Shown here one piece after another: positions 6,069-64,000 of a DNA stretch of 64,000 nt. The DNA is from Candidatus Nomurabacteria bacterium. GTDB lineage: Bacteria; Patescibacteriota; Minisyncoccia; Phycocordibacterales; UBA9973. The notes below the pieces were generated by a model, which was given only the letters and a program-made list of their open reading frames with translations, did not search any database and had not been told where the DNA came from. A program made the translations under genes and the position numbers. Each line of letters opens with the position of its first letter. Position 1 is the first letter of the stretch. The DNA lies in assembly GCA_026396015.1 (NCBI GenBank), contig JAPLXP010000014.1, forward strand, positions 15,944 to 79,943, written 5' to 3'.

Positions 6069-6092
6069 AATTTTAATTTTAATTTTAATCTA

Positions 6093-10060: not shown

Positions 10061-10102
10061 AAAAACACGAAACTTGAATAATATTATTATTCAAGTTTCT
10101 TT

Positions 10103-10837: not shown

Positions 10838-10968
10838 TTTATCAAAACAAAGAAAAAGGCCTCAGATGCGAGGCGCAGTCGAGGATACGAGGGAGATGTA
10901 GTTGTTCTACATTGACCGAAGTACCGGAGACTGCAACAAAGCAGATGAGGCCTTTTTATTTGTTTTAC

Positions 10969-11346: not shown

Positions 11347-11443
11347 TGCAATCGTGCGACGCGACTGCTGTACAATAACTATATCATATTTCTATTTTTG
11401 CACGCAATAAAAAATTCCCCACAACTGTGGAGAATTTTTTATA

Positions 11444-11749: not shown

Positions 11750-11751
11750 AG

Positions 11752-13761: not shown

Positions 13762-13765
13762 AAAC

Positions 13766-14587
13766 ATGAAGCCAATCATAATAAAAAGAAAATATAAAAA
13801 TCCAATTATAGCAATCATAATATTGATTATTATAATTAGTATTACATATGTTGTATTTGCATACAGAAAAGCAGAAGCACCAAAAATACCAGAGATAAAA
13901 AATGAAGTTAAAAGTGATATTCAGAAATCCGCAACAGAGAGCAAGGAAAATACTAACAATAAAAATATTGGTACATATAAAATAACAAAAGATTTTAAAG
14001 TAATACCAACAGATAAAAATGCTGACAAGAAAGTAGTACTGCTAACTATCGATGACGGTCCTAGCTCACAATCATCTGATATTGTGAAGACTCTGACAGA
14101 TGCAAACATCCATGCTATATTTTTTATCAATGGCACAAATATAAAAGCTCACCCAGATGCACTTAAACAAGAATTTGCTGCTGGAAATATGATAGGCAAC
14201 CATACTTGGGATCATAAGAATTTACATCTTATAAAAGACGAAACAGCAAAAAAGGAAATTGATATGAACACAGATATCATAGTAAAAGAAACTGGAGTAA
14301 AGCCAATATTCTTTCGTTCACCATTTGGAGCTCTGACGACTTTTGCAAAAGATTACACTGAGAAAGAAGGAATGTTCCCATTCAATTGGTCTGATGCTGC
14401 ACTGGACTGGGAAAAGAACACAAAAGATAAAAAAGTATTTATCGCCAATGTTATCAAAGGTATCGGCCCAGGATCAATAATCTTGATGCACGAGCACCCA
14501 TGGTCACGAGATGCCCTCCCTGATCTAATCAAAGAAATAAAATCAAAAGGATATACATTCGTAGATCCAAAAGATATAGTTAAATAA
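13766..14587 (+). CDS. membrane-anchored polysaccharide deacetylase (NodB-homology domain)
   Basis: N-terminal TM helix, then VVLLTIDDGPS...GNHTWDHKNL, which is the NodB catalytic motif. Confidence 0.8.
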   Translation: MKPIIIKRKYKNPIIAIIILIIIISITYVVFAYRKAEAPKIPEIKNEVKSDIQKSATESKENTNNKNIGTYKITKDFKVIPTDKNADKKVVLLTIDDGPSSQSSDIVKTLTDANIHAIFFINGTNIKAHPDALKQEFAAGNMIGNHTWDHKNLHLIKDETAKKEIDMNTDIIVKETGVKPIFFRSPFGALTTFAKDYTEKEGMFPFNWSDAALDWEKNTKDKKVFIANVIKGIGPGSIILMHEHPWSRDALPDLIKEIKSKGYTFVDPKDIVK

Positions 14588-14589
14588 AT

Positions 14590-14626
14590 AAAATACCTCA
14601 CAATATTTGTGAGGTATTTTATTTAT
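14590..14626. terminator. bidirectional intrinsic terminator hairpin
   Basis: aaaatacctcacaatatttgtgaggtatttt with flanking A/T runs, between the convergent deacetylase and smc genes. Confidence 0.7.
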
Positions 14627-16887: not shown

Positions 16888-16890
16888 AAA

Positions 16891-17586
16891 TTAATCCAAC
16901 CACTTCTTAGCTTCTAATGCATTGCGGGCTGCTGATTGTTCAGCTTCTTGTTTACTCTTACCTTTACCCAATGCAATGCGATCATCACCAAAGAAAATAG
17001 CGATAGTGAAATGTTTATCATGATCAGGACCAGACTCGCTGACTACCTTGTAAGACGGAGTCACACCTACGTGCTCTTGAGATTTTTCTTGAACTAGACT
17101 CTTTGCATCTCTCCACAACTTCTTGGCTACGATCTCATCTATTTTACCAAATAAAGTACGAGCAATAAAATCCTCGGCCACGTCATAACCACGATCAAGA
17201 TATACAGCACCTACGTATGCCTCGTATGTATTGGCTAGGATATAACTACGAGCTTTACCCATATCTTTTGATTCACCTTTTGAGAGGAGCAGGTAGTTGT
17301 TCATACCGAGCTCACCAGCCACCTCACCTATGATCACAGCATTCACTAATGCTGATCTATATGCCGTTAGCTCACCTTCGTCACATTTTGGATATTTACG
17401 ATAAAGATAATTTGTGACTGCGAGTTCAAGAACTGCATCACCCAAAAATTCTAGACGCTCATTGTGAGACAATCTAGATCCTGAGTTTTCATTTATATAG
17501 GATCGATGAATAAAAGCTTGTTCTAAAAGTTTTTTATCATCAAAGATAATTCCTATATCTTTTTCAAATTTTGTAAAATCAATCAT
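16891..17586 (-). CDS. rnc: ribonuclease III
   Basis: ERLEFLGDAVLELAV RNase III signature plus C-terminal dsRBD. Confidence 0.92.
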   Translation of the reverse strand: MIDFTKFEKDIGIIFDDKKLLEQAFIHRSYINENSGSRLSHNERLEFLGDAVLELAVTNYLYRKYPKCDEGELTAYRSALVNAVIIGEVAGELGMNNYLLLSKGESKDMGKARSYILANTYEAYVGAVYLDRGYDVAEDFIARTLFGKIDEIVAKKLWRDAKSLVQEKSQEHVGVTPSYKVVSESGPDHDKHFTIAIFFGDDRIALGKGKSKQEAEQSAARNALEAKKWLD

Positions 17587-17590
17587 TAGA

Positions 17591-17660
17591 TTAGTTTCTA
17601 GGTTCTAGTGACTAGGTACTAGTATATTTTCTTTACTAGAAGCTAGTCACTAGAACCTAA
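17591..17660. promoter_or_regulatory. CTAG-rich palindromic intergenic element (family C): aggttctagtgactag ... ctagtcactagaacct
   Basis: Perfect 16-bp inverted repeat around an AT-rich spacer. It lies between the NusB-Nudix stop and the rnc start. The same motif recurs at ~52058, ~61000, ~61590 and ~58430. Confidence 0.6.
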
Positions 17661-18562
17661 TTCTTTGTTAATATTTCAATAGCTTTTGTGAGAAGCGGAA
17701 TCATATTTTCATAAATACGTAGTCCTGCTATCTCCTCGATTGGGAACCATTGCGCCCCATCGAGACCTCCTGTACCCTTTTCAAGTGTGATTTCTGTATA
17801 TTCTGATTCACCGAGAAAGAATACAACTTGCTTACGAATCTTTCCTTTTTCTGGGTGATTTGCTATGTATTCGTTGCGTCCAAGGATTTCCTTAATTTTA
17901 ATATCAAGATCCATTTCTTCTTTTATCTCACGAATAGCACCTTGTTCTTCATTCTCTCCATCTTCAATACTACCCTTGGATAATGTCCAGTATCCAAACA
18001 CATCATGAACAAAAGCAAAATACAATTTGCCATCATGATTTGAATAAACTACAGCTCCAGCTTTCTTTTCAATTGGGAATTTTGCAGGGTCAGTCTCAGT
18101 GAATTTTGGATTCTTCTTTTTGCTGACATCATCTTTGCCTGGCTCACCGATCTCCTTGTACACACCACCGAGGACTCCGTTTATAAACTTACTTGAATTC
18201 TCTCCACCAAAACTTTTAGCAAGTTCGATAGACTCATTTATAGCTACCTTTGGAGGAACCTGTGTTCTATCACCAAAAAGAAGCTCGTAGAGCCCCATAC
18301 GTAGAATATTACGATCAACTATAGATATCTTTTCAATTGGCCAATCAGGAGCAGCTTTTTCAATAATCTCATCGATTATAGCCTTCTTTTTTACGACACC
18401 GTTAAAAATCTCTTCTATGAAAGAGTTATCATCGAGGCCTGGACCAAATTCCTCTATATTGCGATCAAGCATAACAGTAGGAGATTCATCCTTATTCACA
18501 CCGAAATCCCACTCAAAGAGTGTTTGTAGAACAATTGAACGTGAAAGGTGCCTGTTTGCCAT
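17657..18562 (-). CDS. nusB: NusB antitermination factor fused to a C-terminal Nudix hydrolase domain
   Basis: N-terminal 140 aa are NusB-like (HLSRSIVLQTLFEWDF...AINESIELAKSFGGENSSKFINGVLG). The C-terminal half carries a Nudix box GSIEDGENEEQGAIREIKEEMDL (G-x5-E-x7-REUxEExGU). Confidence 0.8.
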   Translation of the reverse strand: MANRHLSRSIVLQTLFEWDFGVNKDESPTVMLDRNIEEFGPGLDDNSFIEEIFNGVVKKKAIIDEIIEKAAPDWPIEKISIVDRNILRMGLYELLFGDRTQVPPKVAINESIELAKSFGGENSSKFINGVLGGVYKEIGEPGKDDVSKKKNPKFTETDPAKFPIEKKAGAVVYSNHDGKLYFAFVHDVFGYWTLSKGSIEDGENEEQGAIREIKEEMDLDIKIKEILGRNEYIANHPEKGKIRKQVVFFLGESEYTEITLEKGTGGLDGAQWFPIEEIAGLRIYENMIPLLTKAIEILTKN

Positions 18563-18643
18563 AATTTTAGCTTTTTGAAAGCTTAAAGCTTTAGGCGTTA
18601 ATATAGTTTTTTAAACCTATATTAATGCGCCAAAACTCAAAGC

Positions 18644-18856
18644 TTACTTTGACTTTGTTTTTGTTGCTTTTTTTGTAACTTTCTTCACCACATCGAGAAC
18701 TTTTCTACCACGATACATGCCGCAGTTCTTGCAAACTGAGTGAGTCTCTTTTGGAGCCTGACAATTTGAACAAGCACCAAAAACTGTGCCTTTCAAAGCA
18801 TGATGTGAGCGTCGATTCCCTGTATGAGAACGTGTATGTCGCATTCGTACTACCAT
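18644..18856 (-). CDS. rpmF: 50S ribosomal protein L32 with K-rich C-terminal tail
   Basis: MVVRMRHTRSHTGNRRSHHAL...C-x2-C...C-x2-C matches the L32 zinc ribbon. The track ORF begins upstream at 18907, but the internal Met fits L32. Confidence 0.85.
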   Translation of the reverse strand: MVVRMRHTRSHTGNRRSHHALKGTVFGACSNCQAPKETHSVCKNCGMYRGRKVLDVVKKVTKKATKTKSK

Positions 18857-18896
18857 AAATACAAGTATACTGATTTTTACATAAAATGCAAATAAA

Positions 18897-18928
18897 AAGC
18901 CACTCATTCAGAATGAGTGGCTTTTTTG
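18897..18928 (-). terminator. intrinsic terminator
   Basis: aaaagccactcattcagaatgagtggcttttttg hairpin plus U-run downstream of the 18942..19709 gene. Confidence 0.7.
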
Positions 18929-18941
18929 TTTTTGCGACAAA

Positions 18942-19709
18942 TCAACGGCTTGCCTTGATATTTTTTTTCAAAAAATTAAATTTTTTGGGGTTTGATTCAA
19001 TAACAAACCTCAGTCCTTTTTCAAAATTATTTGAATGACCGTTATATAGTGATGCTCCGGTGCATTCACTAATTTCTTCAGAATAAGACCTGATAATTTT
19101 AGGATCAGGAGACCCAATAAAAGAACTAGGTGCATCTATGTCCATAGAAACAAAGTTCAATTTAAAATGACATGCAACTTCTGAGACTGACAATAAAGAT
19201 ACTATTCCGACCCTTGTTGCATCAATTTCCTCTTTTAATTCCCTTTTAACTGAATTAATCTGAGTTTCTTCGATTAAACGCAAAAAAAGATCCTCACTTT
19301 TATTTTTAAAAGTATCTTGGACTTTTTTGAATAAATTAGCAGTAAACTCATTAAAAATAGGATTTGCTGTTGCAAAATCTGTGATGCCATTAGAGTCCGA
19401 TACATACTGACGATTAAGTACATCAATCTCCATGTAGAGATATTCCAAAGAATGATCTCTATGGCCTGAAGATGTAAAACATTGTACCATATTGTCTATG
19501 GCTTTAAGCAAATCCTCACCAATAAATTTACCTCCAGGAATTCTTTTTTGAATTTCAAATTTGGAAAATTTATAATCTACTAACCAAACTCTTGGCGTCT
19601 CTCTTAGATCAAAAGACACGCAATTTACTGCGTAATTAAAAGTGTTAGGATTCTGAAAAACAGAATTCAAACCAGAGCCCGAGCGGGTCCCAATATCATT
19701 TTTTTTCAT
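18942..19709 (-). CDS. hypothetical protein
   Basis: 255-aa ORF with coding-like composition. No motif I can assign. Confidence 0.4.
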   Translation of the reverse strand: MKKNDIGTRSGSGLNSVFQNPNTFNYAVNCVSFDLRETPRVWLVDYKFSKFEIQKRIPGGKFIGEDLLKAIDNMVQCFTSSGHRDHSLEYLYMEIDVLNRQYVSDSNGITDFATANPIFNEFTANLFKKVQDTFKNKSEDLFLRLIEETQINSVKRELKEEIDATRVGIVSLLSVSEVACHFKLNFVSMDIDAPSSFIGSPDPKIIRSYSEEISECTGASLYNGHSNNFEKGLRFVIESNPKKFNFLKKNIKASR

Positions 19710-19811
19710 ATTTAATGTTTTAAATTTAAAAGTATTATATCACAACAGCATAATAAAGTCAATAATATAAAAGTCTTACAATGTAAAGTTTTTATGATAT
19801 AGTAAAAAGAT

Positions 19812-21557
19812 ATGGAAAATACAGAAAAATTACAAAATATCCGCCATACATTGGCTCACCTTTTAGCGCAAGCTGTAAAAAAAAATTATCCAAATGTTCA
19901 ACTAACCCTCGGTCCTGCCGTTGATAATGGATTCTACTATGACATAGATTTTGGCACAGATAAATTAAGTGATGAGGATTTATCTAAAATCCAAGCTACA
20001 ATGCTCGAGAATATCCCCTCTTGGACAACTTTCACACATGAGGAAGTATCAAAAGAAAAAGCTCTAGAAATTTTTGCTGGCAATGTATACAAAGCAGAGT
20101 TGATAAATGAGATAGCAGATCGTGGTGAAGTAATCACACTATACACATGTGGTGGATTCACAGACCTTTGTCGAGGTGGACATGCAGAAAATCCTGCAGC
20201 AGAAATACCAGCAGATTCATTCAAGCTCGACCGTGTAGCTGGTGCATACTGGCGTGGGAGTGAGTTGAATAAAATGCTCACTCGTATTTATGGACTAGCA
20301 TTTGAAAATAAAGAAGAATTAGAAAAATACATTTGGCAATTAGAAGAAGCAAAAAAGAGAGACCACAGAAAGATTGGTAAGGAGATGGGATTATTCGTAT
20401 TCTCAGAGCTCGTAGGACCTGGACTACCACTATGGACTCCAAAAGGTACAATCATCCGTGAATTGCTAAATGACTATGTCTGGGAACTCCGTAAAAAACA
20501 TGGATACCAAAAAGTCACAATTCCACATATTACAAAAAAGGAGTTATACGAGACCTCAGGACACTGGGCAAAATACGCCGACGACCTATTCAAGATAAAT
20601 ACTCGTGAGAATCATACCTTTGCGATGAAGCCTATGAATTGCCCACACCATACTCAAATATTCGACTGTGAGCCTCGTAGCTATCGTGATATGCCACAGA
20701 GATACTGTGAGACTACAATGGTATACAGAGATGAACAATCTGGAGAGCTTTCAGGATTATCTCGTGTACTCTCTATCACTCAGGATGATGCACATGTATT
20801 CTGCCGTGAGAATCAAATAGAGGCAGAAGCTATTGTCATCTGGGATATCATCGAGACATTCTATAAAACATTTGGTTTTGATTTAAAAGTTCGCTTTTCA
20901 AAACACGACCCTGCTACACCTGAAAAATATCTAGGAAGTCCAGAAACTTGGGCAAAAGCAGAAGGTGCACTCCAGAGTCTAATGGAGAAAAAAGGAGTAG
21001 AGTGGATAGATGGTACAGGTGAAGCTGCATTCTACGGACCAAAGATCGACTTTATATCTCATGACTCCATCGGCCGTGTACTACAGGTTGCTACAATTCA
21101 ATTAGATTTTAACCAGCCAAAAAACTTTGGATTAACATTTACAAATGAAAAGGGTGAGAAGGAGCAAGTAGTCATGATTCACTGTGCAATCATGGGATCA
21201 ATAGAGAGATTCATGTCTACACTCATCGAGCATCTCGCTGGTGTATTCCCTATCTGGCTATCACCTACACAGATATCTGTAATACCTGTAAAAGAAAACC
21301 ATGAAGAAGATACAATAAAAATAATAGAGGCATTGAATAATGAATCTATCCGTACAAATCATGTGACAAATGGTGACAGCCTAGGCAAAAGAATTCATGC
21401 AGGTAAAAAAGGAAATACTCCATATGTAATAGTCTATGGAGACAAAGAAAAGGAATCCGGAATGCTGACTATCGAGACTCGTACTGGAGAAAAAATTCAA
21501 ATAACCATCGAAGCATTAATAGAAAAAATAAATACAGAAATTAAAAACCGCTCATAG
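19812..21557 (+). CDS. thrS: threonyl-tRNA synthetase lacking the N-terminal TGS domain
   Basis: RHTLAHLLAQA...GPAVDNGFYYD (N2 editing domain), HRKIGKEMGLF, KPMNCPHHTQIF class II core, C-terminal anticodon-binding domain. Confidence 0.92.
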   Translation: MENTEKLQNIRHTLAHLLAQAVKKNYPNVQLTLGPAVDNGFYYDIDFGTDKLSDEDLSKIQATMLENIPSWTTFTHEEVSKEKALEIFAGNVYKAELINEIADRGEVITLYTCGGFTDLCRGGHAENPAAEIPADSFKLDRVAGAYWRGSELNKMLTRIYGLAFENKEELEKYIWQLEEAKKRDHRKIGKEMGLFVFSELVGPGLPLWTPKGTIIRELLNDYVWELRKKHGYQKVTIPHITKKELYETSGHWAKYADDLFKINTRENHTFAMKPMNCPHHTQIFDCEPRSYRDMPQRYCETTMVYRDEQSGELSGLSRVLSITQDDAHVFCRENQIEAEAIVIWDIIETFYKTFGFDLKVRFSKHDPATPEKYLGSPETWAKAEGALQSLMEKKGVEWIDGTGEAAFYGPKIDFISHDSIGRVLQVATIQLDFNQPKNFGLTFTNEKGEKEQVVMIHCAIMGSIERFMSTLIEHLAGVFPIWLSPTQISVIPVKENHEEDTIKIIEALNNESIRTNHVTNGDSLGKRIHAGKKGNTPYVIVYGDKEKESGMLTIETRTGEKIQITIEALIEKINTEIKNRS

Positions 21558-21567
21558 AGCGGTTTTT
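21542..21567. terminator. bidirectional terminator hairpin
   Basis: aaaaaccgctcatagagcggttttt between the convergent thrS and pilin genes. Confidence 0.75.
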
Positions 21568-21571
21568 AATT

Positions 21572-22183
21572 TTATCTACAAGTAACTGGATTATTTATAT
21601 CTAACACACTAGTAATAGGATCAAATACAGAAGTTGTATAACCACCACCTCCATAATTAGTACTCCAAGTTAAACTAGAGTACTTCACATTACCACTTGA
21701 ATCAACACACATAGTTGGTAATCCCGATTTTAAACCCTCAAAAGCAATCGCATATGATTGACCATCCTGGGATATACCACACCAAAATATATTTTCATTG
21801 GAAGCTTTATTTGTTCTCAACATGGCACTACCAACAACAAGACCTATTTGATAACTTGTAGTACCTGGACCATTACTACCATCTTGCCTAGAAAATGGCA
21901 TATTACAGTCCCCAGCGCCACCAGGAAAATTAACCCCGTACCCAGGGGCAGCAGGATTTTTATATGTACTTATTGAATTACCAGCACTAGTATATGTACC
22001 ATACCTACCATTTTGCTGATAGTACATTTCCAGGCCCTTTTTTACCTCATCTGCAGCTGATTTTACATAAGCGACATCTGCCTTATTCTTTGTATTTTGT
22101 AAACTTACCATCACTACAGAAGCAAGAATACCAATGATGGCAATGACAACCAGTAATTCCAATAATGTAAAACCTTTTTTCAT
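21572..22183 (-). CDS. type IV pilin / pseudopilin
   Basis: Prepilin leader plus N-methylation motif KKGFTLLELLVVIAIIGILA, followed by a Gly/Ser/Thr/Tyr-rich globular part. The start was moved to the internal Met. Confidence 0.8.
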   Translation of the reverse strand: MKKGFTLLELLVVIAIIGILASVVMVSLQNTKNKADVAYVKSAADEVKKGLEMYYQQNGRYGTYTSAGNSISTYKNPAAPGYGVNFPGGAGDCNMPFSRQDGSNGPGTTSYQIGLVVGSAMLRTNKASNENIFWCGISQDGQSYAIAFEGLKSGLPTMCVDSSGNVKYSSLTWSTNYGGGGYTTSVFDPITSVLDINNPVTCR

Positions 22184-22236
22184 AATTAATATTATAGCAC
22201 AAAAAATCACCTCAAGAAGGTGATTTTTTGTATTTA

Positions 22237-24330
22237 TTAGTAATCCAGATTTGCCATCTTGGCATGAGATTGGATAAAAGCTTTGCGTGGTGGAACCTCA
22301 GATCCCATCAACATATCAAATACTTTATTTGCATCTTCAGCATCATCTACTTTTACTTGCTTTAGAATTCTACGTGCCGGATCCATGGTAGTCTCCCATA
22401 GCTCTTCAGCATTCATTTCTCCGAGACCCTTGTATCGTTGTACATGAATCTTTGTAGATTTTTTCTTTGTGTCTTCCTCCTCTTCTTCGACATCTGTCTC
22501 GACGACTTGTTCATTCTCAGATTCTTTTAGAAGCTCTTCGAGATTCACAGCATCCTTACCGAGGATTTTATCTCTCTCTTCATCACTGTATGCGTAGAAT
22601 ATCTCCTTACCTTTTTTAATCTTGAATAGTGGTGGCTGAGCGATATAGATATATCCAGCATCGATGATTGGTCGGAAGTATCTGTACATCAATGTCAGGA
22701 TCAGTGTACGGATGTGTGCTCCGTCCACGTCGGCATCGGTAGCGATGATGATCTTGTGGTAACGCATCTTTTCTAGATCAAATGTATCTCCGATAGATGT
22801 ACCCATGGCGATGACCAGATTCTTGATCTGCTCTGATCCGAGCATACGATCCAATCTTGCACGCTCGACATTGAGAATCTTTCCGCGGAGTGGCAATATA
22901 GCCTGAGTCTTACGATCACGTCCCATCTTTGCAGTACCACCAGCAGAGTCTCCCTCCACTATGAATAGTTCTGCACTAGATGAATCCTTGACCTGACAGT
23001 CAGCGAGCTTTCCAGGGAGAGTCATACCTTCGAGTGCTCCTTTACGCAATACTGAATCCTTTGCGGCCTTTGCGGCCTTGCGAGCGCGGAGTGCGAGCAA
23101 TCCTTTGTTAATGATAGACTTTGCTTCATCAGGATTCTCTTCGAGGAACATTGTGAATGCATCACCAAATACTGTAGCTGTAGCACCTTGAGCTTCAGTA
23201 CTACCTAGCTTGGCTTTGGTCTGACCTTCAAATTGAATTTCGCGAAGTTTTACAGAGACCACAGCCATCAACCCCTCGAGTACGTCATCACCAGTGAATC
23301 CACCATCAGCCTCTTTGATCAGATTATTTTTCTTACCATAAGTATTCAATATCCGAGTCAGTGCTGTCTTGAATCCTGTGATGTGTGTACCACCTTCTGG
23401 GTTGTAGATATTGTTTGCAAATGGAACTATGTGTGAAGAGAAGTCATCGATATATTGAAGTGCGACTTCGACTCCGACATCGTCTACCTCCTTCTCTACA
23501 TAGAATACAGTAGAATGAATTGGCTTTTGGAGTTTGTTGTAAAATTTTACGAGTGATACGAGTCCTCCTTCAAAATAGAATGAAGTAGAAGGAACCTCTA
23601 ATTCAAGTTCAGAGAACCAGATAACATCATTGTAGTCAGTATTTTTCTTTGTAAGAATTGCCTCACCCATATCTCGAGCATCTATGATATGTATACGTAG
23701 GCCCTTTACTAGATACGCTTGCTGACGAAGATGAGAGACGATAGTATTCCAATCAAATTTAACTTCTTTAAAAATTTCTACGTCTGGCTCGAAAGTAATG
23801 ATTGTACCGTTTGATTTTGAATTGCCCACTTTTTTAACAGCGGCTTTCTTTTTACCTTGAGAGTATTCCTGTACATACTGACCACCATCACGGTGCACAC
23901 AAGCACGAGTATAGATAGACAGCGCATTCACCACAGAAGCACCCACTCCGTGTAGACCTCCAGATACTTTATATCCACTACCTTCACCTCCGAATTTACC
24001 TCCAGCATGGAGAGTTGTCATGACAGTCTCGAGAGCTGAGACTTTTGTCTTGGAGTGAATATCAACTGGGATACCACGACCATTGTCGGCGACGCGGACA
24101 CGATTGCCAGGCAAGAGAACTACTTCAATACGATCAGCATATCCACCCATGGCTTCATCACGAGAGTTGTCGAATATTTCCCATACGAGATGATGCAAAC
24201 CATCAATACCAGTAGAACCGATATACATACCCGGGCGACGACGTACTGGCTCAAGGCCCTCTAGAACCGAGATTTCATCTGCACCGTATGCACCTTCTTT
24301 TTTTGCTTTTTTAGTTTCGTCTTTTGCCAT
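22237..24330 (-). CDS. gyrB: DNA gyrase/topoisomerase IV subunit B (type IIA topoisomerase ATPase subunit)
   Basis: GHKL ATPase GLHHLVWEIFDNSRDEA, transducer and TOPRIM (EGDSAGG, PLRGKILNV) motifs. No gyrA is adjacent. Confidence 0.9.
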   Translation of the reverse strand: MAKDETKKAKKEGAYGADEISVLEGLEPVRRRPGMYIGSTGIDGLHHLVWEIFDNSRDEAMGGYADRIEVVLLPGNRVRVADNGRGIPVDIHSKTKVSALETVMTTLHAGGKFGGEGSGYKVSGGLHGVGASVVNALSIYTRACVHRDGGQYVQEYSQGKKKAAVKKVGNSKSNGTIITFEPDVEIFKEVKFDWNTIVSHLRQQAYLVKGLRIHIIDARDMGEAILTKKNTDYNDVIWFSELELEVPSTSFYFEGGLVSLVKFYNKLQKPIHSTVFYVEKEVDDVGVEVALQYIDDFSSHIVPFANNIYNPEGGTHITGFKTALTRILNTYGKKNNLIKEADGGFTGDDVLEGLMAVVSVKLREIQFEGQTKAKLGSTEAQGATATVFGDAFTMFLEENPDEAKSIINKGLLALRARKAAKAAKDSVLRKGALEGMTLPGKLADCQVKDSSSAELFIVEGDSAGGTAKMGRDRKTQAILPLRGKILNVERARLDRMLGSEQIKNLVIAMGTSIGDTFDLEKMRYHKIIIATDADVDGAHIRTLILTLMYRYFRPIIDAGYIYIAQPPLFKIKKGKEIFYAYSDEERDKILGKDAVNLEELLKESENEQVVETDVEEEEEDTKKKSTKIHVQRYKGLGEMNAEELWETTMDPARRILKQVKVDDAEDANKVFDMLMGSEVPPRKAFIQSHAKMANLDY

Positions 24331-24400
24331 TTTTATAAAGTTAAAAAATAAAGAAAATATCTCTTAAATCAAAGATATTTATGTATATATTATAACAAAA

Positions 24401-24432
24401 AAACACTAATTACACTAGTGTTTTTTTATCTA
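24401..24432. terminator. A/T-flanked hairpin terminator
   Basis: aaaaaacactaattacactagtgttttttt, located between RAYT-A and gyrB. Confidence 0.55.
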
Positions 24433-24523
24433 TTTTACCCTTTAAAATAAGGATATTTTCATTTTTATATATAAAAATAAGATAAACTCATACAGCCCTT
24501 CCAAACCAAAACCATACACAATA

Positions 24524-24557
24524 AAAATCTGCCTAGGTCCGACCTAGGCAGATTTTT
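24524..24557. repeat. REP-A palindrome copy 1 (aaaatctgcctaggtccgacctaggcagatttt)
   Basis: 14-bp perfect stem with tccga loop, overlapping the RAYT-A stop. Identical copy at 25257..25290. Variants at 24943..24967 and 39466..39490. Confidence 0.85.
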
Positions 24558-25233
24558 AAATACTGTAATTTTCAAAAAAATCAAACAATTCCCTCGTGTG
24601 ATTTACACGAATATGATCTGGTAATATTTGCCTATCTATTATTTTAGAATACTTTCTGCTGTCCACAAAGTAATCAAAGAAACTAGAGTACTTATATTTT
24701 TTCAAATAATCTATTGTTTTATTTTTATCGTTAATACCATTTATTTTCCAATCTTTTTGGATCAATTTTACAGGGTTCAAGTGAACATAAGAAAAAAGAT
24801 AGTTAAAATAATTCTCTTCACCCACATGATTAGATTTAAATTTTCCCTCAAATAAAGAGCCTGTGCGTCCATATTTTTTATTAAAATACATTGAGTACGA
24901 AGTAGAAACTTTACGAATAAATTCAGTTATAGGATTAAACTTTTCGCCTAGGTCCGACCTAGGCGAAATAAGAATAATATGAAAATGATTTGGCATAAGG
25001 ACCCAAGCTAAAACATTTACCAAAGTTTCCCCTCTTTCAAAATCAAATGAATCAATATTATTTCTAACAATTGAATTTCTAAAATTAAATTTCAGCTCTG
25101 AATTTGCAATATAGAGGAGCTTAGTAAAACGTTCATAATCTTCATCATCTAAAAATATCTGACTCTTTCCATTGCCACGATTGTAGATATGATAAAATTC
25201 GTTTTGCACTAAATTTGTTTTTCGCAATGACAT
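24556..25233 (-). CDS. REP-associated tyrosine transposase (RAYT, IS200/IS605 Y1 HUH family), copy A
   Basis: YHIYNRGN N-terminal motif, HUH motif LMPNHFHIIL, catalytic Tyr region YLFSYVHLNP. Bracketed on both sides by identical REP-A palindromes. Confidence 0.8.
   Translation of the reverse strand: MSLRKTNLVQNEFYHIYNRGNGKSQIFLDDEDYERFTKLLYIANSELKFNFRNSIVRNNIDSFDFERGETLVNVLAWVLMPNHFHIILISPRSDLGEKFNPITEFIRKVSTSYSMYFNKKYGRTGSLFEGKFKSNHVGEENYFNYLFSYVHLNPVKLIQKDWKINGINDKNKTIDYLKKYKYSSFFDYFVDSRKYSKIIDRQILPDHIRVNHTRELFDFFENYSI
24943..24967. repeat. REP-A copy embedded in-frame in the RAYT-A coding sequence
   Basis: ttcgcctaggtccgacctaggcgaa encodes SPRSDLGE just after the HUH motif. Confidence 0.8.
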
Positions 25234-25256
25234 ATTTATATTGTATCAAACAAATA

Positions 25257-25290
25257 AAATCTGCCTAGGTCCGACCTAGGCAGATTTTTT
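25257..25290. repeat. REP-A palindrome copy 2
   Basis: Same 33-mer as 24524..24557. It sits between the RAYT-A start and the stop of the 862-aa surface protein gene. Confidence 0.85.
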
Positions 25291-27877
25291 ATTGTTGTGG
25301 AGTAATTTCTGGGGATGGTGTTTGCGCAGGTGCTGGATTTACAATCACTCCCCCCGCAGGAGCTGGGTTTTCATCCACTACAAGAGGCGCCACAGGCTCT
25401 GGACTCACCACAACTGGAGCAGGAGCATTCACCACTACGCACTCCCCTGGTACTGTCTGCATCGCACCACTCACGACTTTCACACAGAATGGATCACCTG
25501 TCTCCTCATCGTAGATTGTAATACCTGTACGCTTTGCAGGACTACCTATGTGCAAAGTCTGCACAGTCAAATCTTTGATTGATGCCATAGTGCCTGACAC
25601 TTGAGTCACAACTCCACCAAAGAAATCAGACATCAGATTAGATACACCATGACTTCCAAGATTTGAATTCTCGAGAGCCTTCACACGCAAATCCATTGCA
25701 ACTATTTTTGAATTCTCTTCTTTTACAGATGCCATCAGTATTCCGTTTACAGATACTTGATCAATCATATTACCCACCATGAATGCAGGATTTACTTCAT
25801 CTGCGATATATCCAATACGAGTCTTTGCTAGCGGTGAATCTGATCCGTATCCATTTACTTCACGAATATATCTGAATGTATGCAATGGTGCATCTAGAAC
25901 CATTTGCAATGAGGCACTGTAGTCTGTGTAATCTGCTATATCTTGCTTTGTATCACGAGTAGATGTCTGTGCTCCTACCACGGTACCGGCTGTGTCGTTT
26001 GCATTACTTGGTGATGCTGTATTGATGCGAATGTTTCCTGCTGCATCTTGCCATACGTATCCAGCTGTACCAGCTTTACTTTGGAAGTTTATAGATCCAG
26101 CGCCAGTATTTGTAGCATTTGTATTGCGCCCTAGAGTAAACACTGGACCAGCCAAACCAGCACCTAGATCCGAAGAACCTATGTTTAAGGATCCAGTATT
26201 CGTCACATTAAACTTACTCACATAACTTCCACCTCCAGTACCAGCATCAATCAGATATTGAGCACCAGAACCCAAAGTTGTTTCCGTGCGATTGATCCAT
26301 AAATCTGTCGCTGCTGCTGTACCTGTCTGACTGAGATTTGGAGTTATTTTAAGAGTAGAATTATTACCTGAAGATTGTGTCTGGGAACCAGTACCAAGTG
26401 TCACATATGCAGCAGTGGTAGAAATAGATTGATTACCAAATGTCATTCCCAAATTGCTTGCTGCTCTAAATATAGTAGAAGTCATTCCATTTGGGGCATA
26501 CGCAGAACTAGATGTCACAAAAAATTGACTTGATCCATTTATTTGTAAATCGATAAGAGAGCCCGTATAACCCGTAGCTTCATTTACAGCTAAAGATGTT
26601 CCGCCTGCTTGACCTATAAATTTACCAGCGGTTGACCCATCGAATGCATTTCCTCCGATAGATAATGTGCCGTAAGCTGTAACTGCAGTAGGTGCTACTC
26701 CGATGGTCAATTTACTTGCTGGGGTGATTGTGCCGATACCCAACCTATGATTTGTAGAATCCCAATAGAATTGACCTCCAGCTGTAGTATCTTGGGAAAG
26801 CACCCCAGATGTACCAGCAAATAATATTGATCCGATAGTTGGAGTAAAAAATGTTGGAGCACCCGATCCACCAGACACTACAGCCTGACCACTAGTTCCA
26901 GTAGATGTATATGCATGTGCTGTACCTGTACCATATCCGATACCACCAGCTGTCGGAGTAGCAGATGAATTTGTACCTCCTTGAGCTATAGTCACAAGTG
27001 CATTATCTGTGAGGATAGTAGCAGAGATATTTGGAAGAGTGAAAGTCTTTGTCGAAGTAGTAGGACCTGAGAATGAAGTGAACGCATTACCTGTACCACC
27101 ATTTGTAGAACCTAAGGTTCCAGTCACAGTAGATGTACCGAGGGCAACTGTAAATCCAGTACCAGTAGAACCACTAGTGAGTGTGCCCACTGTAGCGATA
27201 TCTGTACCTACGAGCTTTGAAGCTGCGATACTACCAGCTAGGTCAGCATTCAAAACTGCACCTGTAAGCGATAACTTGGAATACGCTATTGAGCCAGCGA
27301 GGTCAGAATTTAAAATTGCACCAGAGAGTGAAAGCTTTGAATATCCGATAGACCCAGCGAGCATAGCACTAGTAACTGCACCAGAATTTATTGTCCAAGA
27401 TGCACCAGATGAAGCTACTGTTATGTCACCTTTGTTGCCATCAGTAACACCAGCCCCTCCACAAGCACCCCATGCAGGTGCACCTGATGAAGCAGAAGTA
27501 AGACACAATGTAGCACCTGCATTTGGAGCTAGCACACTAAGAGCTCCAGTTCCATTACCATATATAATTCCATTTGAAGTAAATGAACCAACTCCTGTAC
27601 CACCCTGGCCGACAGTCACTGCTGCATTAGTAGTCAGCACTGTGGCATTCGCATCTGGAAAAGTAAAAGTACGAGTAACAGTAGGACCTGTCACAGCAAA
27701 AACACCATCACCAACTTCTGACCACCCATGACCTGGATTTGGAGTAGTAGCAAACACAAGCTGAACAACAGAAAAAACTACTACAGAAAATAGCAGAGTA
27801 TAAGCAACATAGTGGAATGAAAATCGTGGTCGGATGGTGTGTAAGAATTTTTTAAATAATAATTTTAAATTAAACAT
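25289..27877 (-). CDS. large Gly/Thr/Ser/Ala-rich surface (tail-fibre-like) protein with C-terminal endosialidase-chaperone (peptidase S74-like) domain
   Basis: N-terminal signal/TM segment. Long G-x-G-T repeats and LAGSIAxSKLSL repeats. LGIGTITPASKLTIG fibre-like motif. C-terminal STRDTKQDIADYTDY...LHTFRYI resembles the intramolecular chaperone auto-processing domain. Pro-rich extreme C-terminus. Confidence 0.55.
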   Translation of the reverse strand: MFNLKLLFKKFLHTIRPRFSFHYVAYTLLFSVVVFSVVQLVFATTPNPGHGWSEVGDGVFAVTGPTVTRTFTFPDANATVLTTNAAVTVGQGGTGVGSFTSNGIIYGNGTGALSVLAPNAGATLCLTSASSGAPAWGACGGAGVTDGNKGDITVASSGASWTINSGAVTSAMLAGSIGYSKLSLSGAILNSDLAGSIAYSKLSLTGAVLNADLAGSIAASKLVGTDIATVGTLTSGSTGTGFTVALGTSTVTGTLGSTNGGTGNAFTSFSGPTTSTKTFTLPNISATILTDNALVTIAQGGTNSSATPTAGGIGYGTGTAHAYTSTGTSGQAVVSGGSGAPTFFTPTIGSILFAGTSGVLSQDTTAGGQFYWDSTNHRLGIGTITPASKLTIGVAPTAVTAYGTLSIGGNAFDGSTAGKFIGQAGGTSLAVNEATGYTGSLIDLQINGSSQFFVTSSSAYAPNGMTSTIFRAASNLGMTFGNQSISTTAAYVTLGTGSQTQSSGNNSTLKITPNLSQTGTAAATDLWINRTETTLGSGAQYLIDAGTGGGSYVSKFNVTNTGSLNIGSSDLGAGLAGPVFTLGRNTNATNTGAGSINFQSKAGTAGYVWQDAAGNIRINTASPSNANDTAGTVVGAQTSTRDTKQDIADYTDYSASLQMVLDAPLHTFRYIREVNGYGSDSPLAKTRIGYIADEVNPAFMVGNMIDQVSVNGILMASVKEENSKIVAMDLRVKALENSNLGSHGVSNLMSDFFGGVVTQVSGTMASIKDLTVQTLHIGSPAKRTGITIYDEETGDPFCVKVVSGAMQTVPGECVVVNAPAPVVVSPEPVAPLVVDENPAPAGGVIVNPAPAQTPSPEITPQQ

Positions 27878-38045: not shown

Positions 38046-38076
38046 TAAAAAGCCCCGCGGCATATGCCGCGGGGCT
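38046..38076. terminator. bidirectional GC-rich terminator hairpin
   Basis: aaaaagccccgcggcatatgccgcggggcttttg between the convergent ABC transporter and murI genes. Confidence 0.8.
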
Positions 38077-38083
38077 TTTGTAT

Positions 38084-38875
38084 TTATAAATATTTTATTT
38101 CAAAATCATCCCCATACCAATCTTGTCCATATTTTTGAAAAATAGGATTTTCTCCTGTGATATAGAATATGAGCGATCCGTCTAAAGCCAATTTATTATT
38201 AAAATTTTGATTTTCTTTTATGTATTTTTCAAGGAATGGTGGAGTTATCTCTTCTTGAAGAATCCAATTTGAGACATTTGGAAAAATATTTTTAAATTCT
38301 GACACAGCGATACCATAGTGCGTACATCCGAGCACTACAGAATCCACACCAGCAGGTATGACTTCTCTATTCTGATCTAGATATGCAGACACATCCCCTC
38401 CTTTTTCTATGATAGAGGCGAGCTCTGGCAATACGAATTCATGAGTTTCAATATTCTTTTCTTCGAGAGATTCTTTATAAAAATGTGAATCCACAGTCCG
38501 GTGTGTAGCAAAAACCATCACACCGTTTGAATCTGAGATTGATTCTACTGTAGGATGTGCGATGCCGAATAGTAATCTGTCTGGATAATTTTCTCTTACC
38601 CATTCTTTCAACTCTGGATATATGGCTGTACTAGTAGTATTGCAAGCGAGCAATACTACTACACAATTCTGCTCGCCATACAGGAATGCCAAAGCGGTAG
38701 TAGTAAAAACAAACAAATCATTTTTTGATTTATTCCCGTATGGCACATTCTTTTGATCACCATAGAATACGTAATTGTATTCAGGGAGTAATTCTCTGAT
38801 GTGCTTCAATATCCATAGTCCACCTAGGCCTGAATCAAATACTCCAATATTTCCTTTTGTATTTTCATTATTCAT
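38084..38875 (-). CDS. murI: glutamate racemase
   Basis: VFDSGLGGLWILKHIRELLP and VLLACNTTSTAI catalytic Cys motifs. Confidence 0.88.
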   Translation of the reverse strand: MNNENTKGNIGVFDSGLGGLWILKHIRELLPEYNYVFYGDQKNVPYGNKSKNDLFVFTTTALAFLYGEQNCVVVLLACNTTSTAIYPELKEWVRENYPDRLLFGIAHPTVESISDSNGVMVFATHRTVDSHFYKESLEEKNIETHEFVLPELASIIEKGGDVSAYLDQNREVIPAGVDSVVLGCTHYGIAVSEFKNIFPNVSNWILQEEITPPFLEKYIKENQNFNNKLALDGSLIFYITGENPIFQKYGQDWYGDDFEIKYL

Positions 38876-39579
38876 TAAATTACAATCAATTCTTTTGGTG
38901 ACTTTGTAAGGATAGTGCTACCCTTTTTGGTAACCAGGATAGTATCCTCTATACGAATACCCAATTTATTTTTTATATATACACCTGGCTCGACTGTGAT
39001 GACCATATTATCGTCGAGAATTGGTTTTGTGATTTTAAAATAAATTCGTGGATTTTCATGAATGAGTTTCCCTACTCCATGACCTGTCATATGGATAAAA
39101 TATTTAGCATATCTACCGAGTGCCTTTCTGCATACTTCGTCTACTGTGAACGCATACACACCACTTTTAACCTCACCAATTCCCGCTAACTCACTCTGTA
39201 AAACTAGATCATAAATTTTCTTTTGTTCAATAGTTGGAACGCCGACAAATATCGTGCGAGTCATATCTGAGCAATAGCCATTTACCTTTACCCCAAGATC
39301 AATAATCACAAAACCAGATAATTTTTTATCGGTCGGCTGTGGGTGAATATCATTGCCTGCATTACGGCCTGATGTGACGATAGGTGGAAAGCTCGGTCTT
39401 AAACCTCTTTTCTTTATCTCAAATAAAATAAAATCTCGCAATTCCACTTCGGTAATTTTATGAGTCTTGCCTAGGTCGGACCTAGGCAAGAATTTTAAGA
39501 TATTTTTGAAAATAGCATCAGTCTCGCGGCAAGCCTTCTTGATATTTTCAATCTCTTCTTTTGTCTTTATTTGTGCCAT
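38875..39579 (-). CDS. M24-family metallopeptidase (Xaa-Pro/methionine aminopeptidase catalytic domain only) carrying an in-frame REP-A insertion
   Basis: IVTSGRNAGNDIHP...IIDLGVKVNGYCSDMTRT...HMTGHGVGKLIHENP...VEPGVYI pita-bread motifs. The N-terminal segment KFLPRSDLGKTHK is encoded by the REP-A palindrome. Confidence 0.8.
   Translation of the reverse strand: MAQIKTKEEIENIKKACRETDAIFKNILKFLPRSDLGKTHKITEVELRDFILFEIKKRGLRPSFPPIVTSGRNAGNDIHPQPTDKKLSGFVIIDLGVKVNGYCSDMTRTIFVGVPTIEQKKIYDLVLQSELAGIGEVKSGVYAFTVDEVCRKALGRYAKYFIHMTGHGVGKLIHENPRIYFKITKPILDDNMVITVEPGVYIKNKLGIRIEDTILVTKKGSTILTKSPKELIVI
39466..39490. repeat. REP-A copy (inverted orientation) inside the M24 peptidase CDS
   Basis: cttgcctaggtcggacctaggcaag. 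Same palindrome family as the RAYT-A flanks. In-frame, encoding LPRSDLGK. Confidence 0.8.
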
Positions 39580-53256: not shown

Positions 53257-54063
53257 TTAAAACGGAGTAGTAAACGGGTCAACGGACAACAATAAATCTT
53301 GCAAGACCGGCTTGCCATTGAAAGGTTCTGGCCAAGTAAATGATATCGGGAACTTTCCATTACTCTTGACCCCTTCGGCATGAGTACTACTGACACCGAT
53401 GGCATTATGATTCTCATCATAAACAATAGCAATCACATTAAATGCAGGTAGGTCATATACACTATCATTTACGACATCGGCTGTGATGATAGGTGAACCA
53501 GAGTCATCAGACAAAACTTTATTTTGAATTTTTATAGGCTGAGTTTGGATTGTAGGTTCCTTTTTATACCAGAAAAACTTTCCCTGGAAATCAAAAGTCA
53601 CACTCTTTGGAATACTATTCCCTACATCTATACGAGATTCAAATACAGCAAAACGCTGATTGGGTGGTATGAATGTCTTGCCAGCACGAGTAGCAATCAG
53701 AATACCATCTTGATCATAAACACGGAATTCATACGGCACATCCACAGCTCCCCCATTTTTATTTTGATTCTCAATATAAGCTAAAACATTGTAAGAACTA
53801 CCAGACACATGAAAAGCACGAGACCATAGCACCACAGGCTCGGAAACCTGAGCAGAGCAGAACTTCATACATAGTCCTCCACAGTCCACTCCGAGTTCAC
53901 TGCCGTTCTGTATATTGTCATTACAATTTGGAGCCTTGAAAATGACATTGTAAAATAACACAAAAAGAATCAATGCTACTACAAAGATTAGTCCCGTCAA
54001 ATACGTAAATTGTCTGCGTCCTGCCCATGACATATATTTTAAGTATAACAAAAATCCGCTCAA
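53257..54063 (-). CDS. hypothetical membrane-anchored exported protein
   Basis: TM anchor plus Cys-containing N-terminal region. No assignable family. Real start probably the internal ATG (MSWAGRR). Confidence 0.45.
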   Translation of the reverse strand: MSGFLLYLKYMSWAGRRQFTYLTGLIFVVALILFVLFYNVIFKAPNCNDNIQNGSELGVDCGGLCMKFCSAQVSEPVVLWSRAFHVSGSSYNVLAYIENQNKNGGAVDVPYEFRVYDQDGILIATRAGKTFIPPNQRFAVFESRIDVGNSIPKSVTFDFQGKFFWYKKEPTIQTQPIKIQNKVLSDDSGSPIITADVVNDSVYDLPAFNVIAIVYDENHNAIGVSSTHAEGVKSNGKFPISFTWPEPFNGKPVLQDLLLSVDPFTTPF

Positions 54064-54216: not shown

Positions 54217-54277
54217 AGTGTAGCAAGAACAGTGTAGCAAGAACGGTTCTTGCTACACTGAACGGTTCTTGCTACAC
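54217..54277. repeat. REP-B doublet: (gtgtagcaagaac)x2 then (gttcttgctacac)x2
   Basis: Two direct plus two inverted copies of the GTAG-initiated 12-13-mer can form a long nested hairpin. Same family as the copies around RAYT-B at 63371-63409 and 63589-63610. Confidence 0.8.
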
Positions 54278-54359: not shown

Positions 54360-54656
54360 TTAACCAAAAAATTTAAATAAAAATGATAACAATAAAGGAA
54401 TTACGATCAATATTAAGGCAATAATTAAAACTCTACTTAACATTTTAATCAAGATAGATACTATCTGTTTAAAATCCATCTTTTTAAGATCTTCTTTTTT
54501 TAAATTCTTATCAACATTTAAATCTACTTTAAAAAACTTTGATATTTTTGAAGTTAAATTTGATGCACCCCACAACATTACCAACTGAAAGCCTCCAAAC
54601 AAAAGACCTCCGAGAACAACAATACCGAGCACAAACAATAAATCAGAATTTTCCAT
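54360..54656 (-). CDS. hypothetical small membrane protein
   Basis: 98 aa with two hydrophobic helices. Confidence 0.35.
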   Translation of the reverse strand: MENSDLLFVLGIVVLGGLLFGGFQLVMLWGASNLTSKISKFFKVDLNVDKNLKKEDLKKMDFKQIVSILIKMLSRVLIIALILIVIPLLLSFLFKFFG

Positions 54657-63320: not shown

Positions 63321-63370
63321 ATTTTAATCTTCATCTATACCTTTATCATACATCTTTTTGTACGGCATTG

Positions 63371-63409
63371 TATAGCAAGAACTGTATAGCAAGAACAGTT
63401 CTTGCTATA
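63371..63409. repeat. REP-B copies (tatagcaagaac x2 + inverted gttcttgctata) overlapping the RAYT-B stop
   Basis: Same GTAG-core palindrome family as 54217..54277. Confidence 0.8.
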
Positions 63410-64000
63410 GGGTTTTAATGAAATAATTCTCAACAAATTCTTTAAAAGATTGCTGATTTTGGAAATAATCTGGAAATGCAGTCTTATTCAAAATATTTCC
63501 CTCTATCCTACCCTGCCCAACATAGTCAAGATAACTAGAATATCTATATGAATCAAGGAATTTTTTCATTTCATTTTGACTATTCCCCTGTAGCAAGAAC
63601 AGTTCTTGCTTATGGTTTTCACTATTATTCCATCCAGAAAATTCAATATCTAGCGGATTTATGTGAATATATCCAAACAATTGCCTCATATAATTATCAT
63701 CTGTTTTTATACATTTTGATTTAAATGGCCCACCAAACAGAGCCCCTTGTCTTTGGTATTTAATGTTAAAAAACATTGAATACCCTACTCCGAGCTTTCT
63801 CATAAACTTAGTGATTCCTCCATCTACTTCTTGTCGGACTAAAATATGAAAATGATTGGTCATTAGACACCAAGCTCCAATAGAAACGAGAGGTTCTCCT
63901 TTATCTAAAATCATAATTTCATCAAAACTCTTATGAGAATGATTAATCAAATTATCTAACCTTGGAGTTTTTTCACTACTAGAATTTGAAATATATAAAA
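63405..64000 (-). CDS. REP-associated tyrosine transposase (RAYT) copy B, N-terminus beyond window end
   Basis: HUH motif LMTNHFHILV and catalytic Tyr region LFGYIHINPL. The reading frame stays open to the window edge. An internal REP-B copy at 63589..63610 encodes HKQELFLLQ. Confidence 0.75.
   Translation of the reverse strand, partial: LYISNSSSEKTPRLDNLINHSHKSFDEIMILDKGEPLVSIGAWCLMTNHFHILVRQEVDGGITKFMRKLGVGYSMFFNIKYQRQGALFGGPFKSKCIKTDDNYMRQLFGYIHINPLDIEFSGWNNSENHKQELFLLQGNSQNEMKKFLDSYRYSSYLDYVGQGRIEGNILNKTAFPDYFQNQQSFKEFVENYFIKTL

Follow-up and report, generated by a model that had tools for sequence, protein, structure and literature searches.

Systems in which a tyrosine transposase (RAYT) associated with repetitive extragenic palindromes (REPs) is kept together with its REP sequences are the most thoroughly studied example of a domesticated transposase coexisting with small repeats of its own, and nearly all of those described are from Proteobacteria, with high copy numbers. 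The E. coli enzyme, TnpA-REP, requires a mismatched bulge and an unpaired 5' GTAG tag (PMC3479197), and REPs that overlap the ends of RAYT genes or lie within host genes were reported earlier (PMC3733652). Here we analyzed a stretch of 64,000 nucleotides from a Candidatus Nomurabacteria bacterium (contig JAPLXP010000014.1), hereafter called the window, which has a G+C content of 38% and carries one copy each of two RAYT-like paralogues, RAYT-1 (24556..25233, minus strand) and RAYT-2 (63405..64000, minus strand). The palindromes that accompany RAYT-1 are termed REP-A and those that accompany RAYT-2 REP-B. Our central observation is that three palindromes at RAYT-1, one in front of the gene, one inside it and one at its end, share a locus-specific sequence that varies between relatives by compensatory changes which preserve perfection. 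We consider it probable that the locus is a REPtron of a Patescibacteria-specific RAYT-like clade, consisting of a resident Y1/HUH transposase gene and the hairpins that its product presumably recognises.

RAYT-1 encodes a protein of 225 amino acids (aa) with the motifs YHIYNRG, HFHIIL and YVHLNP, the second of which holds the HUH histidines (H83/H85) and the third the catalytic tyrosine (Y149-V-H-L-N-P). H83, H85 and Y149 are without variation in 55 homologues. The family is large, as 7866 of 8000 scored candidates passed E<=0.001 and clustering at 50% identity left 134 clusters at E<=1e-30 and 3380 clusters at E<=1e-10. The best 120 homologues are 60-79% identical and about 225 aa long, their named sources are nearly always Patescibacteria, and a conserved extra C-terminal region with a YSSxxDY motif belongs to this protein type. 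An AlphaFold (AF2) model of RAYT-1 reached a pLDDT of 82.9 and a pTM of 0.83. When this model was submitted to Foldseek, the top match was 4er8_A, E. coli TnpA-REP with its REP (E=3e-7, target-normalised TM 0.62), followed by the transposases of IS608, ISDra2 and IS200. A profile run against PDB sequences again gave 4er8 as the best match, yet with E=0.32. We conclude that RAYT-1 and RAYT-2, a Y1 transposase paralogue with 40% identity to RAYT-1, are both Y1/HUH transposases of the RAYT type. The original prediction, which had named RAYT-1 a REP-associated tyrosine transposase on the strength of its motifs, is in line with these structural matches.

The same prediction had RAYT-1 bracketed by identical 33-nt palindromes, and these were indeed found at 24524-24556 and 25257-25289. 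The 5' copy (25257..25289) is the perfect palindrome AAAATCTGCCTAGGTCCGACCTAGGCAGATTTT, for which shuffles give an expectation of zero matches; it adjoins the stop codon of an upstream 862-aa gene and ends 23 nt ahead of the RAYT-1 ATG. At the 3' end, the common 33-nt palindrome is perfect over 37 nt (24522..24558), overlaps the RAYT-1 stop codon (24556-24558) and is located upstream of gyrB. As DNA hairpins, the 5' copy folds with -15.6 kcal/mol (z -10.3) and the 3' copy with -17 kcal/mol (z -11.4). REP-A is more than a flanking pair, however, since the core CCTAGGTC-N-GACCTAGG has four copies in the window and the two that had been missed lie inside genes. One of these, the 27-nt perfect palindrome TTTCGCCTAGGTCnGACCTAGGCGAAA (24942..24968, core 24947-24963), is situated within RAYT-1 itself and forms a hairpin of -13.2 kcal/mol; the other, likewise a perfect palindrome of 27 nt (39465..39491, core 39470-39486), is situated within a prolidase open reading frame (ORF). 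Two half-site matches at 8297 and 60756 were dismissed as chance matches rather than degenerate REPs. An Rfam scan of the window reported only rRNAs and one tRNA and no RNA family at the palindromes.

The copy within RAYT-1 encodes S90-P-R-S-D-L-G-E97, directly after the HUH strand and before the next helix. The other two REP-A reading frames contain TAG on either strand, so that only the PRSDLG frame can survive within a gene. In the structural model the palindrome-encoded peptide (residues 90-100) is a low-confidence loop that leads from the HUH strand (83-89) into a helix (101-121). Sequence alignment to 4er8 places this helix opposite the E. coli TnpA-REP segment holding R78, K81 and K82, residues that sit in the alphaB/alphaC helices contacting the REP hairpin (PMC3479197). 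From this alignment we infer that the helix following the palindrome-encoded loop may correspond to the hairpin-contacting segment of the E. coli protein.

To place these copies in a wider context, 80 related metagenome loci and three others were fetched. The protein loop is retained in every close homologue as S-P-R-S-D-L-G-E or S-H-R-S-D-L-W/C. The residues at its two ends go together in 105 of 112 sequences, with proline paired with glycine (30) and histidine with tryptophan (60) or cysteine (15) and only 7 exceptions. These pairings are those that a DNA palindrome requires, with CCTAGG...CCTAGG in the first case and CAYAGG...CCTRTG in the second. A perfect palindrome, with arms of 8-13 nt around 1-5 unpaired nt, was present in the loop at 35 distinct loci, which contain 23 different cores, for example CATAGGTC, CACCAGTC, CACAAGTC and CGAAGGCC, and further CCCAAGGC, GCGGAAGC, CCTGAACC and CCTAGGCG. 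Outside a clade with a short loop that is treated below, 43 loci were scanned and 35 of them keep perfect arms of at least 8 nt (maximum 13) at protein identities of 48-70%.

The flanking copies track the copy inside the gene. At the 35 loci with a perfect in-ORF palindrome, the palindrome of the respective gene was found again on its 5' flank in 28 of 32 cases and, in 30 of 33, also at its 3' end, and cores taken from other loci as a control matched in only 7 of 1146 (5') and 17 of 1146 (3') comparisons. The loop bases are often reverse-complemented between copies, which means that the copies can sit in either orientation. Even imperfect in-ORF copies still resemble the perfect copies on their flanks (L026, L034, L041, L045, L047 and L056), and in four of these loci (L034, L041, L045 and L047) the in-ORF copy has decayed with flanks that are still perfect.

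Covariation was assessed in an alignment of 21 in-ORF sites that were picked by a peptide anchor and not by palindromy. In this alignment 86.8% of the cells were paired, compared with a maximum of 45.8% when the partner was slid. Changes on both sides were seen in 8 of 13 pairs, and none of 500 shuffles reached the observed covariation score. Selection at the RNA level was tested by counting strand-asymmetric mismatches and gave no signal (16 G-T versus 13 A-C). This lack of a strand bias indicates that the constraint acts on symmetric DNA and not on the mRNA alone.

In a neighbour-joining tree calculated without the loop region, the palindrome-bearing genes form one clade in which related genes have related palindromes. 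In the sister clade the loop is short (type EKEEGGISKFMQK) and there is no in-ORF palindrome. Palindromes are still present 5' and 3' of the gene there, for the most part inversely oriented, and there are sometimes doublets that resemble REPINs (REP doublets forming hairpins). The idea that the in-ORF palindrome is a clear insertion relative to E. coli TnpA-REP was not borne out, as the E. coli loop has a similar length; the loop is longer only in comparison with the sister clade and RAYT-2, which fits an insertion and a loop shortening alike.

The geometry of the unit was counted in 53 non-redundant loci. The distance from the end of the 5' palindrome to the ATG has a median of 22 nt (interquartile range 19-24), and the median start of the 3' palindrome is 2 nt ahead of the stop codon. 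Of the 53 loci, 51 have a TANNNT box whose end precedes the ATG by 3-12 nt, compared with 22.9+-3.4 in shuffles. In the window, a promoter-like site on the minus strand (25240..25267) reads TAGGCA-16 nt-TACAAT with a TG before the -10, as judged by a consensus match only; its -35 lies within the right arm of the 5' REP-A copy and its -10 ends 7 nt before the RAYT-1 ATG. This arrangement suggests that the RAYT-1 mRNA may be leaderless or have a short leader and that the 5' copy may be a site at which the protein could control its own promoter. A consensus scan gave terminator-like scores for the 5' copy on both strands and for the 3' copy on the gene strand, which suggests that the flanking hairpins may insulate RAYT-1 against the 862-aa gene upstream of it and against the downstream gyrB. 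Perfect hairpins that resemble bidirectional terminators are normal punctuation of this genome, and the REP-A flank copies share this appearance. Unrelated perfect palindromes with runs of A and T are found in many intergenic regions, such as 38048-38079, 21538-21572, 18894-18926, 58393-58427 and 54739-54784.

RAYT genes of this group often have as neighbours very large Gly/Thr-rich proteins that carry a Peptidase_S74 (endosialidase chaperone) or Gly_rich_2 domain (window 25289-27877, minus strand; L104 10772-13273; L106 4346-9916; L006 3768-6684), and the large neighbour in the window matches Peptidase_S74 weakly (20.8 bits, cut-off 22).

Copies away from the RAYT genes are few. The window holds one solo REP-A copy and one REP-B doublet per 64 kb, and 361,723 bp of related flanks contain three matching far copies. 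The exact 19-mer GCCTAGGTCNGACCTAGGC was found in 15 stretches among representative genomes of 185,579 species; the source genome was not among the hits. Eleven of these stretches belong to ten assemblies of Patescibacteria or unclassified metagenome-assembled genomes, with a maximum of three per genome, and the other four to members of other phyla (Phenylobacterium, Nocardioides, Psychrosphaera and Streptomyces). Only one stretch has a RAYT gene nearby (1.6-8 kb around each were covered), and several copies lie in frame in large ORFs. In these gene-dense genomes the rare solo copies are often placed within ORFs, in the sole frame free of stop codons, where they read PRSDLG or HRSDLW. Hence the palindromes do occur elsewhere, in the window as well as in other Patescibacteria genomes, which the original prediction had made a touchstone. 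In the comparison of copy numbers with known REP families, which it had also proposed, the numbers proved far lower, and these are not abundant dispersed repeats. Some relatives are more densely occupied than the window. In L106, REP-A-type units form an inverted doublet that resembles a REPIN, CCACATGTCGGACTTGTGG-CTAG-CCACAAGTCCGACATGTGG, in the rpoB-rpoC spacer (14253-14294), and a single unit (950-980) is found about 13 kb away. In JAIPGN010000002.1 two solo REP-A-type palindromes (L013 671 and L022 5702) share about 25 identical nucleotides on each side, and these flanks include a second small hairpin, CTTAGGAGCTCAGCTCCTAAG, which points to a longer composite repeat unit in that Patescibacteria genome.

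The solo REP-A copy of the window has the same 19-nt core as the three copies at RAYT-1, 14 kb away, and stands in frame in the ORF of an M24 prolidase (38875..39579, minus strand), where it reads FLPRSDLGK. Solved prolidase homologues in the PDB have a 7-residue gap at the position of the palindrome. Two orthologues with 85% identity, P0242 and P0243, have HRSDLW instead, and the P0242 DNA (L110/L111, 10092-10112) is the perfect palindrome TCCACAGGTCCGACCTGTGGA. The core of this type recurs at a RAYT locus of the same metagenome (L033, CACAGGTC). Other prolidase orthologues carry SPRPGLG, PKQGLG, KPGFG or KPGSG at the same loop, and P0244, P0245 and P0253 are without a palindrome-type peptide there. 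By comparison of the window with L110/L111 and with L112 (about 10090 and 4529-4546), this loop is a recurrent REP site at which the palindrome stays perfect while its type changes between genomes. No target-site duplication could be defined at the prolidase site, where the palindrome replaces about 4-5 residues and is not a clean insertion. The prolidase-like protein consists of the catalytic M24 domain only (234 aa); solved homologues align from about residue 125-150, and the usual N-terminal domain is missing.

RAYT-2, the paralogue at the window end, had been predicted to possess a palindrome family of its own, and this proved correct: its frame is open to 64000, where the window cuts it (the full protein, P0121, has 235 aa), and a REP-B element lies at its stop codon (63405-63407). 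The REP-B core GCAAGAAC-N-GTTCTTGC occurs at three places in the window, and all occurrences fold into very stable DNA hairpins. The 3' element (63370..63409) consists of an extra left-arm repeat (63370-63382) and the perfect palindrome TATAGCAAGAACAGTTCTTGCTATA (63385-63409). A solo doublet (54217..54277), located between the ORFs 53257..54063 and 54360..54656, is nested, with two left and two right arms, and folds as one long hairpin (-27.3 kcal/mol, z -10.1). The third copy (63592..63610) is in frame within RAYT-2. The original prediction thus had the three places right and overlooked that the copy at 63592-63610 belongs to the RAYT-2 coding sequence and that the one at 63385-63409 contains the stop codon. 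The in-ORF copy is part of an 11-aa insertion, HKQELFLLQGN; its absence from 20 aligned homologues marks it as an in-frame insertion that entered the transposase's own gene recently.

Members of the RAYT-2 clade are flanked by cognate palindromes likewise (L104, L106 and L108), and at L108, which holds a RAYT-2 homologue, the core is that of REP-B and the layout with an extra left arm is the same. The canonical 5'-GTAG head that had been ascribed to REP-B did not hold up, as GTAG is base-paired inside the palindrome and is replaced by ATAG at the RAYT-2 end and by CTAG, TCGC or ATAG in the REP-B-like units of L108. Two RAYT/REP pairs, previously rated as unusual for one 64-kb window, are probably not unusual for one genome in this lineage: three pairs of a RAYT-1-family and a RAYT-2-family protein list a longest contig of equal size (P0083/P0156, 176700 bp; P0043/P0137, 49386 bp; P0045/P0165, 35934 bp), which suggests that the members of each pair sit on one contig. 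Near the solo doublet, 23S and 5S rRNA genes are adjacent to each other (54796-58005, minus strand), with the doublet about 0.5 kb downstream of the 5S gene; the Rfam scan did not report a 16S rRNA gene anywhere in the window. A 47-aa ORF with a CNKC motif (54083-54226, minus strand) has its TTG start inside the doublet palindrome; it may be a genuine gene or what is left of a longer one that the doublet disrupted.

RAYT-1 orthologues adjoin gyrB in L004, L005, L029 and L033, where gyrB is 71-88% identical to that of the window; L004 and L005 carry one and the same RAYT protein (P0088). RAYT-1 of the window is on the other side of gyrB than in these four loci. A close relative, L087 (93% aa identity in gyrB), is collinear with window positions 6028-24427 and has an extra block of 1.2 kb (9487-10686) made up of a degenerate REP, a 127-aa ORF, a REP, a short-loop RAYT and another REP. 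The matching site in the window (14593-14622) shows only a bidirectional terminator hairpin, ACCTCACAA-ATA-TTGTGAGGT, so units have been gained or lost over time. In the 64-kb window there was no indication of multi-copy insertion sequence behaviour.

Taken together, residency of the unit is indicated by the orthologues next to gyrB and by the single copy of each paralogue in the window, and mobility or turnover of the hairpins is indicated by the prolidase insertion, the 11-aa insertion in RAYT-2, the nested doublet and the solo copies elsewhere. Given these findings, we hypothesize that the protein would bind a hairpin extruded on single-stranded DNA and would cut and rejoin the strand beside it, in the manner of E. 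coli TnpA-REP and IS608 TnpA. Hairpins might thereby be copied or replaced occasionally, including into existing hairpins, as in the nested REP-B doublet, and into the transposase's own gene, as in RAYT-2. The flanking copies could serve also as bidirectional terminators or insulators, and the 5' copy may be a promoter-overlapping site for self-regulation by the protein. The in-ORF copy would be actively maintained, either because selection favours a cis site or a master copy of the substrate linked to the gene, or because template switches and gene conversion involving the flanks keep it perfect. The spread and concerted change of the hairpins may be caused by RAYT-1, and the copy inside the gene may have a role of its own.

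Several points weigh against a REPtron. Both proteins match Pfam Y1_Tnp and NCBIfam REP_Tyr_transpos (NF047646), and NF047646 is the best and sole NCBIfam match for either. RAYT-1, however, stays below both cut-offs, just short for Y1_Tnp (22.2 bits, cut-off 23) and far short for the NF047646 equivalog (46.9 bits, cut-off 80), and RAYT-2 exceeds the former (23.6 bits) and not the latter (30.6 bits). Unlike E. coli REPs, REP-A and REP-B are perfect palindromes with no bulge and no conserved unpaired GTAG tag, and a listing of more than 150 copies, judged by eye, revealed no conserved unpaired tetranucleotide by the hairpin foot. For a REP family, the copies are very few. It is by homology that RAYT-1 is credited with binding, cleavage and transposition, and template switching between nearby repeats could produce concerted evolution without any enzyme.

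If the locus were instead an ordinary IS200-like insertion sequence, hairpin, tnpA and hairpin (about 770 bp) would move as one element with the flanking palindromes as left and right ends, and the solo palindromes would be scars or chance matches. The size and layout of the unit recall IS200, the fold also matches the IS608, ISDra2 and IS200 enzymes, hairpins are concentrated at the gene with far copies being rare, and the additional REP-ORF-REP-RAYT-REP block of L087 documents gain or loss of units. We nevertheless regard this as unlikely. Each paralogue is single-copy in 64 kb; the homologues, at 60-79% identity, are numerous, constant in length and in several cases placed by gyrB, which argues for long residence rather than frequent transposition; and the ends are identical perfect palindromes, not distinct imperfect subterminal hairpins. 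Solo hairpins with the same core are present in other genomes and, in frame, within unrelated genes, and TnpA-REP remains the best structural match. A slightly less probable alternative takes the palindromes mainly as expression elements, serving as terminators in both directions, as an operator that overlaps the promoter and as an attenuator inside the gene, and recognised in duplex form or as RNA hairpins, with the protein as a domesticated regulator and not a mobiliser and the similarity of the copies due to local duplication or conversion. This would account for the striking constancy with which the 5' copy is spaced from the ATG and a -10-like box, for the position of the 3' copy at the stop codon and for the terminator scores of the flanking copies, and unrelated perfect terminator palindromes are common in the window. 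Perfect two-fold symmetry is, moreover, typical of sites for dimeric duplex binders. The catalytic histidines and tyrosine are invariant, however, and palindromes in unrelated genes, nested doublets and the RAYT-2 insertion are unexpected of a purely local regulatory element; the near balance of G-T and A-C mismatches also argues against selection on an RNA hairpin alone. A regulatory role is compatible with the REPtron as a second role of the flanking copies.

What the copy inside RAYT-1 does has to be weighed separately. It is possible, though doubtful, that the in-ORF hairpin is functional, so that the gene would carry its own substrate, in a fixed loop beside the putative hairpin-contacting helix, either as a master copy linked to it or as a site for self-targeted regulation, and the enzyme would continually convert all genomic hairpins, including those in host genes such as the prolidase, to the current type. 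The main alternative, for which our confidence is equally low, is a neutral relic of one ancient in-frame REP insertion, whose perfection and match to the flanks, 300-400 bp away, would result from quasipalindrome template switching together with gene conversion. Such switching is an established mutational process that corrects imperfect palindromes. The loop made by the encoded residues lies at the surface and has low model confidence, both the sister clade and RAYT-2 lack the copy, it has decayed between perfect flanks at the four loci mentioned above, and RAYT-2 and the prolidase make clear that REPs insert into coding loops. Against a relic, 35 of 43 loci with perfect arms at 48-70% protein identity need a strong homogenising force, and the prolidase copy, 14 kb off, stays perfect and changes type between orthologues, for which local conversion alone is insufficient. 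Hence, a neutral relic is the main alternative for the in-ORF copy, and the IS200-like and purely regulatory explanations of the locus as a whole are less well supported.

The RAYT-like family is thus large in the ultra-small genomes of Patescibacteria, which widens the known range of such systems and presents a repeat population reduced to a few copies. The original prediction had called RAYT/REP systems poorly documented in genomes like those of the candidate phyla radiation, and in agreement with this our literature search found no paper linking RAYT or REPIN with Patescibacteria; the sole paper containing both 'REP-associated tyrosine transposase' and 'candidate phyla radiation' was a 2026 Nanobdellota preprint, by term match only. 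With a copy locked in the transposase gene, each gene sequence reports its own substrate, which makes enzyme-substrate coevolution tractable and readable at the protein level. Where Patescibacterial proteins contain motifs such as PRSDLG or HRSDLW, these can be decorations of repeat origin and not functional motifs. The system also lends itself to questions about the turnover of REP types at orthologous sites and about possible self-regulation of RAYTs via flanking repeats. A functional in-ORF hairpin, if confirmed, would link a transposase to its substrate in a new way and would represent a new form of concerted evolution of a repeat family across a whole genome.

Compared with the REPtrons of Proteobacteria (E. 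coli TnpA-REP, 4er8, and Pseudomonas RAYT/REPIN), the Patescibacterial locus is alike in its Y1/HUH enzyme, with 4er8 as the closest structure, and in tight cognate palindrome flanks that differ by paralogue and lineage; its gene, present once in 64 kb, may be single-copy as well. It is also alike in the mostly inverted flank copies, here in the sister clade, and in REPIN-like doublets (L099, L077 and L106). It differs in having a handful of copies and not tens to hundreds, and in a larger protein (about 225 aa) that has the extra YSSxxDY region and scores far under the NCBIfam RAYT cut-off. It differs further in the conserved in-frame cognate palindrome inside the ORF, a feature not found in the literature searched by term, which is no proof of novelty. 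With the TnpA proteins of the IS200/IS605 family (IS200, IS608, ISDra2) it shares the catalytic fold and a unit size of about 0.75 kb with a hairpin at either end. In IS200 an upstream hairpin blocks read-through transcription, and the hairpin upstream of RAYT-1 is so placed that it could do the same. Unlike in IS200/IS605 elements, there is no sign of multiple units here, the ends are identical and perfect, solo hairpins are dispersed and the synteny with gyrB extends to several lineages. The Rickettsia palindromic elements and intragenic REPs resemble the present case in their in-frame insertions into loops of housekeeping proteins, as in the prolidase and RAYT-2, and in the survival of the only stop-free frame (PMC3733652); as is characteristic of intragenic REPs, the prolidase and RAYT-2 copies keep the frame of a conserved gene and are missing from orthologues of that gene. 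In contrast to the Rickettsia elements, the palindromes described here measure about 21-33 nt and have their cognate transposase adjacent, and the transposase itself is decorated at a position that is fixed across the clade.

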